Source: Fistulifera solaris
Lineage: Eukaryota
DNA: 64,000 nucleotides
Assembly (NCBI GenBank): GCA_030295235.1
Contig: AP026131.1
Location: 248,001-312,000 of the forward strand
Reading direction: 5' to 3'
In this document: piece after piece, positions 24,105-57,095 of the stretch
Numbering within the stretch: position 1 is the first letter of the stretch
How the letters are laid out: each line of letters starts with the position of its first letter
Position numbers and translations under genes: made by a program
Notes under the pieces: generated by a model
Seen by the model: only the letters and a program-made list of their open reading frames with translations
Told to the model about the DNA's origin: nothing
The model's database searches: none

Positions 24105-24249
24105 AACCTGGAGGTTTATGTGGTTAAATGCCTCCTGTCAACGAAAAATATGCATAACATCGGATTACCTGGTAATGGTATAAAACAACAATGTACCAGG
24201 GTATCTTTTGAATTTTTGGAAAGTAGACGGGGGATGCTGTGTGATGTAA

Positions 24250-24370
24250 TGCACCTTGTCCAGATATTCTGGAAAATACACAGAATTTCTGTATGATGAA
24301 TTCCATTGCATCCAGAATTTCTGGAGGTACCACAGTATTTCTGTGTGCTGAAAAACACATTTTCCAGAAT
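24250..24370 (-). repeat. Short dispersed copy of the CCAGAAATTCTGG repeat family (reverse orientation)
   Basis: tccagatattctgga, acagaatttctgt, tccagaatttctgga. Confidence 0.7.
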
Positions 24371-33352: not shown

Positions 33353-33629
33353 CTTGATTCTCCTTCCTTTTCTGGTCATATTTTGCTTCTTTGGGCGAAT
33401 GAGAATCGCCTTTGTAGTTAATCAGGATAAATTATTGTTGCGGATCATTCGAGGGAAAGATTGCGATGGGAGACCGATGAGCGAATGAATAAAACGAAGG
33501 AAATAATGAAAATGAAAGGTGAAAAGCAATGAGATAATTGTGGCAGGCGCCCGTGAGAGGCGGAAAAGTTAAGGTTAAGGGCATGAAAAGAATTACAGTA
33601 ACCTTACTCCGGAGTACATAAAGGCAAAC

Positions 33630-33698
33630 GACGTTAAAATTCTGCCTCGCCGTAGGCCCTACGTAGAAACTTGTACTGAGAGGCAGAATTTTAACGTC
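33630..33698. repeat. Hairpin (inverted-repeat) element, copy 2
   Basis: 19-bp perfect inverted repeat gacgttaaaattctgcctc / gaggcagaattttaacgtc; loop homologous to copy 1. Confidence 0.88.
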
Positions 33699-33819
33699 CT
33701 TTCAAGTAGACGACTCTAGAGTCTAGTCTAGGTCTAGATAGTCATTCTATCATAAAAAAAAAAATTTTGGAATCATCGGTGTCTAAGCGACGTAAGGTTA
33801 ACAGAGATTCTGTATAAAT

Positions 33820-36800
33820 TTGAGAATTTGCTTGCGGTCAAACAAAGATTCTGTGGTCGTTCCAAAAATTCTGGAATGTTGATTGGGTCATGCGAAAGTC
33901 TGTGGCCGTTCCAGAAATTCTACAAGTAGAATCTAATTCTGGACTCGTTGTTTTGGGTAATACAGAGAATCTGTGCCCGTTCCAGAAATTCTAACGAAAG
34001 TCTGTGGGCGTTCCAGATATCTGGAATCCATATTTTGGAACAAACAAAATTTTTTTGGTCGTTCCAGAAATGCAAGAATCGTTGTTTCGGGTCAAACATA
34101 GATTCTGTGGTCGTACCAGAAATTCTGGAATCGAAGCTTTGGATCAAACAGAGATTCTTTGGTCGTTCCAGAAATTCTGGAATTTATATTTTGGAACAAA
34201 CAGAGGTTCGGTGGTCGTTCCAGAAATTCTGGAATCTATATTTGGAACAAACAGAGATTTGGTGGTCGTTCCAGAAATTCTGGAATGTTGTATTGGGTCA
34301 GAGGAAAGTGTGTGGGCCTTCCAAATTCTGAAAACAATATTTTATATCAAACAGAGATTCGGTGGTCGTTCCAGGTATTCTGGACTTGTTCGATTGGGTA
34401 ATACAGAGCTTCTGTGGTCGTTCCAGAAAATCTGGAATCGGAGATTTGGATCAAACCGAGATTCGGTGATTGTTCCAAAATTCAAAAATCGTTGTTTCGG
34501 GATAAACGTAGATTCTGTGCCCGTTCCAGAAATTCTGGAAAGTGTGTTCAGTAGAAAACAGAGATTCTGTGGTCGTTCCAGATATTCTGGAATCGAAGAT
34601 TTGAATCAAACATAGACTCTGTGCCCGTTCCAGAAATTCTGGAATCGTTGTATTGAATAATACGAAAGGCTTAAGTCGTTCCAGAAATTCTGGAATCTAT
34701 TTTTGGAACAAACAGAGATTCGGTGGTCGTTTCAGAAATTCTGGACTCGTTTTTTTGGGTAATACAGAGATTCTGTGCCTGTTCCAGAATTTCTGGAATC
34801 GAAGATTTGAATCAAACAGAGATTCTGTAATAGGTTCCAGAAATTCTGGAATCTATATTTTGGAACAAACAGAGATTCGGTGGTCTTTCCAGAAATTCTG
34901 GAATCTGTTTTTAGGAACACACCGACTGAGTAGCACAGTTGGTTACTCTCCGGTTGACGAACCCGGAGGGGCGAGGTTCGATACGGTGGTTGGTCGATCT
35001 TGGCGCCCAGCGCCGTAGATGAGAGTCTTGAGACGATCGGTGGTCCCCGGTCGTGTCTGAATCAGATAGGAGCCCCTCATTTCGCATGTTCCACATGTTT
35101 GACCTGGCAGCGGTTCGGTGTTCGGTGGATTTCATCCATTGTCCATTGGGTCAGTTGTGTTTCTCTAACTCGATTAGGGACTCGGTTCTCTTGTAGGGAT
35201 AGGACGTAAGCATAGTAGATTCTAGCCATTTTTTTTATTTTTTGGAACAAACAGAGATTCGTGTTCGTTTCAGAAATTCTGGACTCGTTTTTTTTGGGTA
35301 GTCTAATTCAGAGATTCCGTGCCCATTCCAGAAATTCTGGAATTGTTGTATTGGGTGAAACATTCTGTGGTTGTTCCAGAAATTCTGGAATCGAAGATTT
35401 GAATCAAACAGAGATTCTGTGCCAGTTTCAGAAATTCTGGAATCTATATTCTGGAGCAAACAGAGATTTGGTGGTCGTTCCAGAAATTCTGGAATCTATT
35501 TTTTGAACAAACAGAGATTCTTTGCCATTTCCAGAAATTCTGGAGTTGTTGTATTGGGTGAAACAGAGATTCTGTGGTCGTTCCAGACAATCTGGAATGA
35601 TGTATTGGGTCATAAGAAAGTCCGTGGGCGTTCCAAAATATTGAAAACCATATTATTCATCAAGCACAGATTCTGTGGTCGTTCCAGAAATTCTGGACTC
35701 GTTCGGTTGGGTAACACAGAGGTTCGGTGGTCGTTCCAGAAATTCTGGAATTTATATTTTGGACCAAACAGAGATCCTGTGGTTGTTCCAGAAATTCTGG
35801 AATCGAAGATTTGAATCAAACAGAGATTCTGTGTCCGTTCCGGAAATTCTGGAATCTTTTTTGGAACAAACAGAGATTTGGTGGTCGTTCCAGAAATTCT
35901 GGAAATAGTAATTGGGATCACACATAGATTTTCTGTGGTCGTTCCAGAATTTTGTGTATAATGTGTTTTGAAAGAAACAGAGATCCTGTGCCGGATCCAG
36001 AAATTCTGGAATGATGTATTGGGTCATAAGAAAGTCCGTGGGCATTCAAAAATATTGAAAACCATATTATTCATCAAGCACAGATTCTGTGGTCGTTCCA
36101 GAAATTCTGGAATCTATATTTTGGACCAAACAGAGATTCTGTGGTCGTTCCAGAAATTCTGGAATTTATATTTTTAAACCCACAGAGGTTCGGAGGTCGT
36201 TCAAGAAAATTTGGAATCTTTTTTTTGGAACAACAGAGGTTCGGTGGCCGCTCCAGAAATTCTGGAATCGAAGATTTGAATCAAACAGAAATTCTGTACC
36301 AGTTCCAGAAATTCTGGAATCTATATTTTGGAACAAACAGAGATTCGGTGGTCTTTCCAGAAATTCTGGAATCTATTTTTGCAACAAACAGAGATTCGTG
36401 TTCGTTTCAGAAATTCTGGACTCGTTTTTTTTTGGGTAGTCAAATTCAGAGATTCCGTGCCCATTCCAGAAATTCTGGAATTGTTGTATTGGGTGAAACA
36501 TTCTGTGGTCGTTCCAGAAATTCTGGAATCGAAGATTTGAATCAAACAGAGATTCTGTGCCAGTTTCAGAAATTCTGGAATCTATATTCTGGAGCAAACA
36601 GAGATTTGGTGGTCGTTCCAGAAATTCTGGAATCTATTTTTTTGAACAAACAGAGATTCTTTGCCATTTCCAGAAATTCTGGAGTTGTTGTATTGGGTGA
36701 AACAGAGATTCTGTGGTCGTTCCAGAAATTCTGGAATCGAAGCTTTAGATCAAAGAGAAGTTCGGTGGGCGTTCCTGAAATTCTGGATTCGGTAATTTGG

Positions 36801-37410
36801 ATCAAACAGAGTTTGTTTGCCCTTTCCAGAAATTTTGAAATTGTTGTATTGGGTGAAATATAGATTTTGTGGTCGTCCCAGAAATTCTGGAATCTTTTTT
36901 GGAACAGACAGAGGTTCGGAGGACGTTCCAGAAATTCTGGAAATTGTGGTTTGTTAGAAACAGAGATTCTGTGCCTGTTCCAGAAATTCTGGACTCGGTA
37001 ATTTGGATCAAACAGAGATTCTTTGCCATTTCCGGAAATTTTGGAATTGTTGTATTGTGTGGAACAGAGATTCTGTGGTCGTTCCAGAAATTCTAGAGCC
37101 TATATTTTGGAACAATCAGAGATTCGTTGGTCGTTCCAGAAATTCTGGATTCGTTTTTTTTGGGTAATACAGTGTTTTGGGTAATACAGAGATTCTGTGC
37201 CAGTCCCAGAAATTCTGGAATAGTTGTACTGGGTCAAACAGCAATTCTGTGGCTGTTCCAGAAATTCTGGAATGTTGTATTGGGTCATACGAAAATCTGT
37301 GGGCGTTCCAATTTCCAGAGCAATATAATATAGTAGCAACAATTGAATTATCTGCGCTTTATTTTGTAGTGAACATTCATACGAAAGTCTGTGGGCGTTC
37401 CAGGTTCCAG
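33820..37410 (+). repeat. Tandem array of ~52-bp units with a double-palindrome core
   Basis: Core AACAGAGATTCTGTGGTCGTTCCAGAAATTCTGGAA; CCAGAAATTCTGG at 34116, 34168, 34220 and 34271 (period 52, 52, 51); roughly 60 units estimated from length. Confidence 0.97.
34920..35243 (+). mobile_element. Putative tRNA-derived SINE (or Pol III ncRNA) inserted in the array
   Basis: A box TAGCACAGTTGG 34931..34942; B box GGTTCGATAC 34975..34984; degenerate cloverleaf 34924..34996; T-rich tail 35229..35243; ttttt(a)ggaaca on both flanks. Confidence 0.7.
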
Positions 37411-37752
37411 AACAATATATAGTAGCAACAATTGAATTATTTGTGCTTTATTTTGTAGTGAACATTCACTGCTCGAAGAACAGACACCAAGAACCAAGAA
37501 TTTATTTGGAAGTAATGAACACCACTTGTTCAAAGACAGTCTATAGTAGCAACTAGCAAACCATTGAATTTTCCGTCCTTTATTTTGTAGTGAACATTCA
37601 CTGCTCGTAGAACAGACACCAAGGATTTATTTGGAAGTAATGAACACCACTTGTTCATAATCAGTCCAGCGATGATCTGAAATTTCAAAGCTTTATCTAC
37701 AAGCTGGTTGTAAAAGACTCGAGTCCTGAATAATGAACACCACTTGTTCATA
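37289..37752. repeat. Nested tandem duplications at the right edge of the array
   Basis: tttattttgtagtgaacattca three times; taatgaacaccacttgttca three times; tagtagcaacaattgaattat twice. Confidence 0.85.
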
Positions 37753-38530
37753 GGCAGGTGTAACCAGCAACAAATATATTTTTTCACGGGACACAATTTT
37801 GGTGGATCAAGTCACCCTTTGACAACGGATATTTATTCGCCAAAATTGGCGAGAGGAATGAGACTAAAAGAGTAGGAAGTAGGAAGAAACGGTCAAGAAG
37901 CCGGCCGTCCATTTGACTCCAACGGAATAAATAAGTTTACTTCATTAGTGATACTAAATGCTTTCTTTCGACAAAAATACACGATTTTTCATACATCTTT
38001 GTACATCATTGATATTTTGAAATTTTCACAGCTATAAGCAAAAGTAGTAGTATCAATGACCTGTGGCGAGTCATTTAGCATACATTGGACCAAAGTAAAG
38101 TCCAAAATAAGTCCATGGATTCTCAAAAATCCCACCCCCACACCCCCTTGTCACAGCGAAAGTAAAACTTTTCGGATGCCCTGGCATTTTTAGCCGAAAA
38201 GCACGGTTTGAACACACTAAGTCCCTAAAGTACGCAAATTTTAAGTATCATATTAAAGAGTAGCAAGCATCGGAACGGTATTCGAGTTTTAATCTGTGTC
38301 GCAGTGTGGTTGCAAAATGTCGCAGAGGACGCACGGACAGACTGGACCCTCTTTCAGACTCGTGACTTAGAGATGAAGTAAGCTAGACAGTGACAAATAC
38401 TGTACCAGGTACATTAAAACTTTACACGGGACACAATTTGATTTGGAAAAATGCGATCGCGACCCGCCATTGTTGCAGCTTATCGAAAAGCAGCAAGCGT
38501 TTGCTCTTTGATCAAGTAATTCATTCTCAT

Positions 38531-39603
38531 ATGTCTTCATTCGCATTGGGTCTACTGGCCGCCTTGATGGCCCCGTTCCTCATGGCCGTTGGCTTTATTG
38601 TGTGGGATAATCACTGGCTGGGGAGTCCGTTTGCTCTCAATCTTTGCAAATGCAATTTGGCGGCCGTGGGATTTGCCATTGTAGTCTTTACCAACGAAGA
38701 CAGCGATTTTTCGTTTACCAACGTCGGGTTTCTTATTCTCTCTTCCATTTTGGGATTGCTCGTGGGCGATTGGGTCTGGTTGGAAGGAATGCGAGTGTTG
38801 GGGGCTCGCAAAGTCATTGTGATGGACACCTTGAAGCCATTTCTGGCTGCTTTGTTGGGTAGAGTCTTTCTCCATGAGCATCTGTCGATTTTGGCGTATC
38901 TGGGACTTGTTTTGACGGCCATTGGGGTGGTGATGGTAGGCTTAGATATGGAGTCCGAAAGTACAACTTCATCGAAGGATACAGAGCTTGACGCGACAGA
39001 AGACCCGGCGGAAAGTGATAACCTTGTACGAGGTGAAAGGGCCCACGACAAATCACTTCAACATTCCACCAGTTATTCAGAGATGCGCAAAAGCGAAAAC
39101 AACCTCTTCGAGAAACGTATTACGGGATTTTTATGGCAGTCTTGAATGTGCTCTTGCATACCTTCGGTGCTCTACTGACCAAATACTTTGGTGTGGGAAT
39201 GACGACTTGGGAAATCAATCTGATCCGATTTGGATTTTCGGGAGTCGTCATGACAATCATTTCTGTCTCATTCCATTTTCGCGCTTTCTTGTTTTCCTCG
39301 CAAGAAGTAAGGCTATCGATCGATCGTCCCTGGTATGCCCTGCCTCGAATGAATCTTTCGCAGTGGCTACACGTTTTAACGGGAATGGTCTTTGTATCCT
39401 TTCTCGCTCCTGCCTTGTCCAATTATGCCATGTTTCAAATTGCTTTGGCATTATTGTTGACACTCGAATCGTTGGGACCGTTGTATTCATTGCCGTTGGT
39501 GTTTTTGTTACAAGGAGAGCGTCCATCGGCACGGTCAGGTGCCGGTGCTGTGTTGGCCGTCTTGGGGATTGTTCTGTTGTCGTCACGTGGTATGGCATTT
39601 TGA
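38531..39603 (+). CDS. EamA/DMT family membrane transporter; frameshift near 39110
   Basis: About 10 hydrophobic segments; LSSILGLLVGD..W..G...LGARK..V..TLKPF.AALLG..FLHE; SLGPLYSLPL...L.GE. Confidence 0.88.
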
Positions 39604-47699: not shown

Positions 47700-48250
47700 A
47701 TCAAAGCGAAATGCTGTGCGAGTTACAAAAATTCTGGAAAACTTACTCCGTCCTATTTCTGATCATACAGAAATTCTGTGGTGGTCCAGAAATTCTGGAC
47801 CAGTTCTCTCGATTCTACCGAACTGCTGTGGACGTTCCGGAAATTCTGGACAGGTTGTTTTATAGCCTAATGAAAGAGTGGGCGCGTTCCAAAATTGTGG
47901 AAACTTTGTTTTGAATCTTAACGAGAGATACTGCGCGTTCCAGATATTCTGGAAATGTTATTCCGCACTATTTCTGATCATACAGAAATTCTGTGGTGGT
48001 CCAGAAATTCTGGACTAGTTCTTTCGATTCTTCCGACATGCTGTGGACGTTCCGGAAATTCTGGATTCCAGAAATTCCGGAAATTTGATTCTTGACTATT
48101 TCTGATCATACAGAAATTCTGTGATGGTCCAGAAATTCTGGACCAGTTCTTTCGATCCTGCCGAACTGCTGTAAAAGTACCAGAAATTCTGGATACGGTG
48201 TTTTGGATCAAAGCGATAGAAAGTGCGTCTCTCAGAAATTCTGGAAACAT
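47700..48250 (+). repeat. Second cluster of the CCAGAAATTCTGG repeat family (about 10 boxes)
   Basis: tttctgatcatacagaaattctgtg(g/a)tggtccagaaattctggac block three times (about 47756, 47971, 48099). Confidence 0.9.
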
Positions 48251-48443
48251 TGTTGTGAATCATACATAACTCGTGACTAAAACATTGATCTTTGCAAGAC
48301 CTACGTAGCCCCTGCTAGTATCTTTTGTACGCAAGGACCGTGAAAGCAAAAAAAAAGATACGTTCACGGTCTATTGAACACAATGCGCGCAATGAGATTG
48401 GAAGAAAGGTTCATCACTATCCATACTTATTAATTAATCAACC

Positions 48444-56774: not shown

Positions 56775-57095
56775 CCGAATGTCTGGAACGTCCACAGAAT
56801 TTCTGTATGAGGAAATACGTTGTTTTAGATTTTCTGGAATATTAGTTTACTTCAGAAGTATCAACCGAAATCCAAGCACCTGGGCAAACGTTTTACAAGT
56901 ATCGGAACTTCGGTCACCTCCCCTAAGGTTCTCTTAAGCCTCCTAGCCCATTGGAGCTTGTTAACTACTCCGTATCAACCAAACCAAAAGCCATAACCGT
57001 CTCCTCTGCATGAAATACACCTTGTCCAGAATTTCTGGACCAGTACACAGAATTCCTGTATGACAAGAACCATTTTCCAGATTTTCTGGAAAGCA
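56775..57095 (-). repeat. Dispersed degenerate copies of the CCAGAAATTCTGG family (reverse orientation)
   Basis: acagaatttctgtatga near 56794; tccagaatttctggaccagtacacagaattcctgtatga at 57025; tccagattttctgga near 57075. Confidence 0.7.

Follow-up and report, generated by a model that had tools for sequence, protein, structure and literature searches.

The window analyzed here is a stretch of 64,000 bp from contig AP026131.1 (positions 248,001 to 312,000) of Fistulifera solaris, a diatom whose two chromosome sets are colinear. It contains four arrays of one 52-bp repeat family, the largest of which lies inside a 4.6-kb non-coding element. This element starts with TCCG at 38176 and ends with CCACAA at 33538, is inserted between A and T, and comes to within about 120 bp of the 5' part of a frame for an MFS transporter. 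The features of the locus, in window coordinates, are as follows.

24237..24370, minus strand: short stand-alone array, shared with the homeologous site of contig C10
33538..38176, minus strand: non-autonomous Helitron2/HINE-type element, 4,639 bp, non-coding, both ends common to other loci with unrelated flanks
33548..33562, minus strand: 3' hairpin (CGCC-loop-GGCG)
33561..33570, minus strand: 3' subterminal inverted repeat, stopping 23 bp short of the 3' end
33626..33703, no strand assigned: 78-bp high-copy hairpin element with 29-bp arms, in the 3' arm
33816..37304, plus strand: central tandem array, ~59 units of 52 bp by unit-profile scan
34920..35235, plus strand: SINE-like insertion of 316 bp in a linker, with A/B boxes of tRNA type by eye, a T tail and a degenerate 14-bp target duplication
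37305..38156, minus strand: non-coding 5' arm with 89- to 132-bp internal duplications
38157..38174, minus strand: 5' terminal hairpin containing the 5' inverted repeat, from the DNA fold
38166..38175, minus strand: 5' asymmetric terminal inverted repeat, 10 bp, 9/10 complementary to the 3' copy, from the sequence and the table of ends
47726..48269, plus strand: stand-alone array of 9 units, not at the C10 homeolog
56789..57091, minus strand: decayed stand-alone units, not at the C10 homeolog

The 52-bp double-dyad array reported in the first-pass annotation is real. TRF gave a period of 52 bp and 60.7 copies with 65% matches over 34001-37160, and both dyads are present, each unit being composed of a 13-bp dyad, a 5-bp gap, a 17-bp dyad and a 17-bp linker. 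The proposed distance of about 20 bp between dyad centres was recovered in 515 of the 599 units examined across 39 arrays (18- to 24-bp spacings accepted). The period, described as a constant 51-53 bp, has this value in 37 of the 55 dyad-anchor intervals within the array, whereas the remaining spacings are mostly 48-50 or 54-61 bp, or double units of 100-103 bp. Similarly, the array is located where it was first drawn (33820..37410), but it stops near 37304, beyond which the element's arm begins, and it is split by the SINE-like insertion. The latter has 44 matches in the genome, with 10- to 14-bp duplications bordering the paralogues L022, L023, L024 and L027; the 78-bp hairpin element has 414 genome candidates, the best copies being 93-100% identical. 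An internal duplication relates 35239-36010 to 36376-37149 (84%). The array, of 40% GC, lies in the lowest-GC part of the window (36-37% in the lowest 500 bp). Its exact 15-mer core was counted 1159+1177 times genome-wide, compared with 0 for the reversed control, and is thus not a product of chance. ARAGORN found no tRNA, and 11 sub-threshold Rfam matches were judged to be chance.

Divergence is not uniform along the unit, as the first-pass annotation had held. Among 40 window units (leaving out six duplicated ones and any with spacings outside 47-60 bp), mean pairwise identity was 0.894 for the 17-bp dyad, a score inflated by anchoring the units on it, and 0.783 for the 13-bp dyad, whereas the linker reached 0.612 (p=0.0001 by column permutation); the 13-bp dyad by itself, which was not the anchor, gave p=0.0044. 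Across the 39 arrays, with four near-identical copies (L038, L039, L040 and L042) left out, most dyad positions had a consensus of 0.79-0.98 versus 0.39-0.73 in the linker, and the centre AAT was retained in 459 of 599 units. This non-uniform divergence means that some constraint acts on the dyads. The postulated ~36-bp conserved core consists of two conserved dyads, but the 5-bp gap between them is as variable as the linker (identity 0.614). The linkers themselves had been taken for interchangeable sequences drawn from a few classes. In fact, the classes agree mutually at 9-11 of 17 positions, and linker class is statistically associated with the variants beside it (p=0.0014 and p=0.0092; a third test gave p=0.07); the linkers are therefore diverged homologous subfamilies linked to their neighbours, not interchangeable cassettes. 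A CRISPR-like repeat-spacer array was also considered and rejected, since the linker classes recur and resemble one another to this extent, rather than being unique, unrelated spacers.

Genome searches with the ends of the element yielded 12 matches for the 3' end and 13 for the 5' end (controls 0), with unrelated flanks, and seven complete elements of 1.9-5.7 kb carry 52-bp arrays. All 25 collected 5' ends begin with TCCG and are preceded by A (21 ends) or G (4 ends). All 28 collected 3' ends are followed by T, and their hairpin stem is kept around seven different loop sequences, the stem having been a requirement of the 3'-end pattern after it was first seen independently of that pattern. 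Empty homeologous sites were read for copies L040 and L079, on C20 and C40; both show A|T and lack a target duplication. A third comparison beyond the window, of L036 with its C4 homeolog, aligned one flank only, and the C10 homeolog of the window site yielded no exact empty site, as it diverges ~60 bp before the element and does not have the next gene.

The terminal structures correspond to those of Helitron2 (HLE2), for which inverted repeats of 8-15 bp are expected 0-2 bp and 20-30 bp from the ends. Here, the 10-bp repeats lie 1 bp from the 5' end and 23 bp from the 3' end, and those of a 290-bp sister element are 14 bp long, matching at 13/14 positions. DNA folds of three families include the 5' repeat in a hairpin and place a hairpin after the 3' repeat; the 5' hairpin of a 1.57-kb sister family has a perfect 8-bp stem. 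Asymmetric inverted repeats of this kind appear in the consulted parts of the accounts of Helitron2 (PMC3627910), HLE2 (PMC11417382) and the Fusarium elements FoHeli1/2 (PMC5148889), and the positions of the two copies relative to ends and hairpins are likewise those of Helitron2/HLE2. In contrast, the 5'-TC start and the A|T target follow the Helitron1 (HLE1) pattern, and the 3' ends (CACAA, as in the window element, CTACAA or CACA) have neither the 3'-CTRR of Helitron1 nor a T run. The T|T insertion preference usual for HLE2 was not seen (21 A|T and 4 G|T among 25 5' ends); passages in PMC5148889 and PMC11417382 term T|T 'general' for HLE2 and give exceptions.

Related ends enclose quite different contents elsewhere in the genome, namely a 34-bp repeat on C12 and C33, no repeat in the 290-bp element on C36, a DUF6570-like fragment in six 1.57-kb copies, and a frameshifted RepHel-coding element of 8.2 kb on C36 (G000:C36, L115:620-8826). 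The last is the sole helicase-bearing copy found, and the first 135 bp of the window element are 72% identical to it. Its domain order is DUF6570, Helitron_like_N, PIF1, Pif1_2B and UvrD_C_2 (E 1e-4 to 5e-4, each below the cut-off), and its alignment to an intact RepHel of 1,839 aa, in 13 pieces, covers residues 29-1805; the DUF6570, Helitron_like_N and PIF1 matches of the intact protein pass their cut-offs. We used DUF6570 as the HLE2 marker for assigning RepHel, as it is in the part of PMC11417382 that describes HLE2; by this marker, L115:620-8826 is the autonomous-type relative, with related ends, RepHel and DUF6570, that an HLE2 family should have. Table S10 of the same source places HLE2 in two diatoms, Nitzschia sp. 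DOCU1 and Epithemia pelagica. The actual mobilising partner was not found, the C36 copy being broken and of only 72% identity over those 135 bp. RepHel was reached only via the fragment in the sister family, for which a word-based search for longer homologues was blank and a full HMMER search returned 22 homologues. Genome family searches for PF14214, PF05970 and PF20209 were blank, as were two controls, though the C36 element holds these domains weakly. The apurinic endonuclease of Helentrons had no Pfam match in 13 frames of L115 or in five homologues (three of full length). Metagenome contigs gave 0 matches to the 5'-end pattern, and in three contig sets aligned at the locus none of the joints listed crosses the element, a result uninformative on expression or empty alleles.

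The repeat family extends well beyond its carrier. The first-pass annotation had set its proposal against an internal minisatellite of a transposon; this is what the large window array proved to be, but not most arrays of the family, as 29 of the 43 examined lie outside element ends. At ten position-picked sites on C1, element ends were found for 0 of 11 arrays, and the stand-alone arrays had, by eye, no common termini and no fixed start phase. The large array is also missing from the C10 homeolog. Since the short array is present on both homeologs (C9 and C10) and most arrays are unenclosed, the repeat predates the element; the many short arrays without an element suggest that it is probably an older satellite that was taken up and copied. 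The 52-bp and 34-bp repeats have a CAGA-N3-TCTG dyad in common and are biased toward opposite contig sets. That the 52-bp repeat predates the split of the chromosome sets, while sister elements of the other set carry a different repeat, is consistent with its capture as filler.

We consider it highly probable that the array is cargo of a 4.6-kb Helitron2-type element. In this scheme, a related autonomous element likely supplied the Rep-helicase transposase that copied the window element to new A|T sites, judging from its family by rolling-circle transposition via single-stranded or circular intermediates. The 52-bp repeat would be an older dispersed minisatellite captured as filler. The weakest step, on which our confidence is evenly divided, is that intact dyads would favour the amplification and spread of a unit, a constraint both selfish and sequence-specific, while the T-rich linkers would drift into subfamilies that multiply in complete units. 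Central tandem repeats have been described in non-autonomous Helentron/Helitron2 elements of Drosophila (DINE-1), mites (HINE-Mo; PMC4067079) and oyster (Cg_HINE; PMC7492417). In the portions of these sources consulted, they resemble the window element in a 5' subterminal repeat with a nested inverted repeat, a central satellite-like array, a 3' subterminal repeat with a stem-loop, and the absence of target duplication; as in Cg_HINE group 2 (PMC7492417), related flanks surround unrelated repeats. Unlike these elements, the diatom element inserts at A|T or G|T instead of TT, no microsatellite was noticed in its left arm, its partner has no endonuclease match, its host is a diatom, and its cargo is unlike between the two chromosome sets. 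Our literature search, with most subscription journals and Repbase outside its scope, found neither the 52-bp repeat nor any satellite-carrying HINE from a diatom described.

A Helitron2 carrier could also have dyads that selection keeps as binding sites for a dimeric protein of the host (half-site CAGA with a spacer of 3 bp), the arrays then acting as chromatin or regulatory modules by genes. The contrast between dyad and linker consensus, the retained AAT centre, the constant dyad spacing, the recurrence of CAGA-N3-TCTG in the 34-bp repeat and the proximity of the MFS transporter frame are all in line with this alternative, and the dyads may form a phased protein-binding array, as envisaged earlier (52 bp corresponds to 4.95 helical turns and 20 bp to 1.9, but the related 34-bp repeat to 3.24). 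However, arrays turn over between homeologs, with two of the three short arrays and the large one missing on C10; the large array tolerates a SINE-like insertion and its element a hairpin insertion, and anchoring inflates the dyad conservation. We thus regard such host selection as rather unlikely. Still less probable is its extension, in which a different satellite with this host site (52 versus 34 bp) would have expanded in each parental lineage of the diatom, been spread near genes by A|T-targeting Helitron2 elements, and would bias homeolog expression or chromatin. If the dyads were instead kept as hairpins or cruciforms through compensatory change or template-switch repair, symmetric double changes should abound, and overall they do (76 versus 22 expected); real units also fold as DNA hairpins. 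Most of this excess, however, is due to a single subfamily, whose outermost pair accounts for 59 of the 76; at pairs 4-8 there are 4 symmetric changes versus 4.7 expected, changes in one arm are frequent, and the 3-base centre that would form the loop is conserved. The earlier suggestion of a cruciform-forming element was accordingly not borne out, and we consider this explanation very improbable. Slimmer still is the chance that the dyads are heat-shock elements (HSEs) spread by a Helitron. Caenorhabditis Helitrons carry HSE arrays that, in the excerpts of PMC6927752, bind HSF-1 in C. elegans, and the likeness lies in tandem GAA/TTC dyads near genes: the 17-bp dyad is composed of two TTCnnGAA pairs, 76 of which occur in the array. 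Nevertheless, the pairs are 1 bp apart and out of register, the array contains 0 canonical three-unit HSEs (alternating nGAAn in register) and 0 GAAnnTTC, and the one diatom HSF motif compared, from part of PMC11986044, is unrelated.

The first-pass annotation had raised a centromere, with one array per chromosome as its signature. The array is intergenic, a few kb long and in the lowest-GC part of the window, as diatom centromeres are intergenic, of a few kb and below the genome in GC, and the functional predicted centromeres of Fistulifera, an allopolyploid diatom, have 36-37% GC (10.1101/2021.11.10.468027, in part). A centromere is nonetheless unlikely, because the first 100 forward matches form 20 clusters in 1.8 Mb of contig C1. 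Moreover, the window alone holds four arrays, C13 carries two complete element copies, and the array is missing at the homeologous site. By the sections consulted, Phaeodactylum centromeres need <33% GC in 500 bp and have no repeats (10.1101/096016), and those of Fistulifera are without highly repeated elements (10.1101/2021.11.10.468027), whereas the array is highly repetitive, mobile and present many times per contig; the 14-bp core of Fistulifera centromere motif 1 from the latter source is not in the window. A centromere or replication origin consequently retains hardly any credence. We give equally little to a carrier of another class (a MITE, or a Harbinger or Crypton derivative). Short inverted repeats do lie close to both ends, but they are asymmetric, and this option is already largely refuted by the RepHel relative and the duplication-free empty sites; for Harbinger, the 52-bp unit was in 0 of 20 DDE_Tnp_4 loci, within flanks of ~1.5 kb.

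As transposon cargo, a striking array finds an explanation that extends to diatoms the pattern of satellite-carrying HINEs of flies, mites and oysters, in an HLE2 family that inserts at the A|T target typical of Helitron1. The 52-bp and 34-bp repeats, like the element families, show a reciprocal bias that provides markers for phasing and dating the two chromosome sets, an approach named in part of PMC5935921, which states that long-read assemblies are needed for it. Homeolog pairs with and without an array would serve as natural controls for an effect of the dyads on nearby genes. If the improbable host-site extension were true, the two chromosome sets would carry differently spaced arrays of one putative binding site.

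The 52-bp palindromic array lies inside a non-coding element with sharply defined ends, and the features discussed below are as follows.

Window 38176 to 33538, minus strand: carrier element, 4,639 bp
Window 33816-37304: array of 59 units, detected with a profile of the unit
Window 34920-35235: SINE-like insertion in the array, tRNA-type, with A and B boxes recognized by eye and a T tail
Window 33626-33703: 78-bp hairpin element, 414 candidates
Window 38314-38367: 54-bp high-copy repeat, directly outside the carrier

Comparison with twenty other arrays fetched from the genome revealed sharp sequence boundaries common to the window and many of these arrays, on one side or both. The 5' end of the carrier begins TCCG and forms a hairpin in which one 10-bp inverted repeat lies; its partner stops 23 bp short of the 3' end and precedes a second hairpin. 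The two ends had 12 and 13 genome matches (reversed controls, 0). Seven complete copies of 1.9-5.7 kb enclose 52-bp arrays, and in five of these the best blocks mostly agree at 94-98%, with some at 83-88%. The window copy stands further apart, at 86% in the arm and 74-77% in the array. Across all fetched ends, the 5' end is preceded by A (21/25) or G (4/25) and the 3' end is followed by T (28/28), and the homeologous empty sites of two related copies, other than the window's own, read A|T with no target duplication. The same anatomy of terminal inverted repeats and hairpins appears in the available part of the Helitron2 description (PMC3627910), and the excerpts on DINE-1/HINE elements with central repeats also match (PMC4067079, PMC7492417). 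The carrier belongs to a known kind of element, the non-autonomous Helitron2 carrying satellite DNA; a literature search, with most subscription journals outside its reach, found no description of this satellite-bearing one.

The SINE-like element has 44 genome matches, many of them 5'-truncated; its paralogues show target duplications of 10-14 bp, and contigs from sequencing run X4 continue as poly-A past its 3' end. The best 40 of the 414 hairpin-element candidates are 93-100% identical and share the contig set of the 52-bp repeat. A stretch resembling the 54-bp repeat occupies, on contig C10, the place of the array that lies near position 47.7 kb in the window.

A looser end pattern yielded 23 3' ends, six of them from near-identical 1.57-kb copies, and a fragment in these copies, with DUF6570 as its sole Pfam match (E 0.043), led to an 8.2-kb element on C36 (L115:620-8826) with related ends. 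Its domains are ordered DUF6570, Helitron_like_N, PIF1, Pif1_2B, and UvrD_C_2, each matched below its cut-off. An intact RepHel of 1,839 aa matches it over residues 29-1805, the alignment falling into 13 pieces; in this protein DUF6570, Helitron_like_N, and PIF1 exceed their cut-offs, with no match to an endonuclease domain. The C36 RepHel element is near-complete but frameshifted, and its breaks may reflect decay or assembly error. DUF6570 is given as an HLE2-specific marker in the accessible text of PMC11417382, Table S10 of which already lists two diatoms with HLE2. The genome gave a single helicase match, that on C36, which is 72% identical to the opening 135 bp of the window carrier. The C36 element is a relative, though not demonstrably the carrier's partner; by analogy with its family, the carrier probably moved by rolling circle.

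The 52-bp period proposed in the first-pass annotation was recovered by TRF (period 52, 60.7 copies, 65% matches), and 37 of 55 anchor-to-anchor spacings were 51-53 bp. In each unit, a 13-bp dyad is separated by a 5-bp gap from a 17-bp dyad, after which comes a linker of 17 bp. The conserved core described there held for both dyads and failed for the gap between them: mean pairwise identity across 40 units was 0.894 for the 17-bp dyad and 0.783 for the 13-bp dyad, which was not the anchor, versus 0.612 for the linker and 0.614 for the gap (dyads over linker, p=0.0001; non-anchor dyad, p=0.0044). The linkers did not prove interchangeable as had been suggested, since their classes agree with one another at 9-11 of the 17 positions and vary in step with the positions next to them (p=0.0014, 0.0092, and 0.07), indicating that whole units, rather than linkers, are the evolving entities. 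The array also contains an internal duplication (35239-36010 and 36376-37149, 84%).

Dyad conservation extends to 599 units, themselves picked by their dyads, from 39 arrays, in which the consensus share is 0.79-0.98 at most dyad positions and 0.39-0.73 in the linker. Because the commonest class is the perfect 17-mer (179/599), this way of picking units is unlikely to be the sole cause. The excess of symmetric double changes over expectation came largely from a single subfamily, at its outermost pair (59/76); inner pairs of the 599 units showed no such excess and the dyad centre is conserved, which points to constraint on sequence rather than structure. Intact dyads would favour amplification and spread of their units, and we favour such a selfish constraint, at about even odds, over retention of the dyads as putative host-protein binding sites, which we consider possible but doubtful. 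The dyads resemble paired TTCnnGAA units, yet no canonical heat-shock element occurs in the array, unlike the Caenorhabditis Helitrons, for which heat-shock elements are reported in the part of PMC6927752 available.

The genome comprises 51.7 Mb in 62 contigs, of which C9 contains the window (G000:C9:248001-312000), and the named homologues of one protein encoded there come from diatoms. Colinearity with C10 runs along the window, with long syntenic blocks of 80-91% identity, and three further flanks had one partner contig apiece (C19/C20, C41/C40, and C3/C4); the genome therefore has two diverged chromosome sets, as published for the allopolyploid diatom Fistulifera (PMC5935921, in its available portion). 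Among the matches listed, 52-bp patterns fell on 19 contigs and the 34-bp pattern of certain sister elements on 8 others, the two lists sharing no contig (chance 0.007-0.04). In stretches fetched for other reasons and covering few independent loci, 52-bp units numbered 35 in 210 kb on one set versus 2 in 200 kb on the other, and the 34-bp word showed the reverse (1 versus 23), the sets being partly defined by the repeats themselves, with four contig pairs verified. The bias has exceptions: the old 52-bp array is present on C10, and at L044 (G000:C1:909.5-910.9 kb) a 34-bp-type array encloses a 27-unit 52-bp array. Both repeats contain CAGA-N3-TCTG. Two families of young deletion derivatives lie on opposite contig sets, one with six 1.57-kb copies (L072, L073, L075, L077, L078, and L079 on C12, C18, C24, C29, C33, and C41) and one with three 1.49-kb copies, 99% alike (L107, L109, and L111 on C3, C5, and C34). 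The window EamA transporter gene (38387-39500) has no counterpart at the homeologous place (G000:C10:296921-301388), where a 34-bp-type array and unrelated sequence lie instead.

Exact matches to the 15-mer core number 2,336 in the genome. In a sample of 43 arrays biased towards the carrier, 14 adjoin carrier ends and 29 do not, and none of 11 arrays from ten position-picked C1 sites had such ends. The short array that starts at window 24237 has a counterpart at the homeologous site on C10, whereas the arrays at 47726 and 56789 lack one, as does the large array. Related ends elsewhere enclose the 34-bp repeat (C12, C33) or no repeat. From these sequence comparisons, the 52-bp repeat appears older than the carrier, and the simplest reading is that the carrier captured a resident minisatellite.

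The earlier suggestion of a centromere was rejected on the number and mobility of such arrays. Array GC is 40% (500-bp minimum, 37%), above the 33% of the Phaeodactylum rule as excerpted from 10.1101/096016; the minimum is close to the 36-37% of predicted Fistulifera centromeres, from which highly repeated elements are absent according to the accessible part of that study (10.1101/2021.11.10.468027). The core of the published Fistulifera centromere motif is absent from the 64-kb window and occurs at three places in the genome. At L069:3649 (G000:C10) this core falls within a sister element copy, with the 3' end on one side and an internal block on the other, so that such elements may also move the centromere/ARS motif. 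The window carrier is a variation on the known Helitron2 kind, with an A|T target and a cargo biased by chromosome set.
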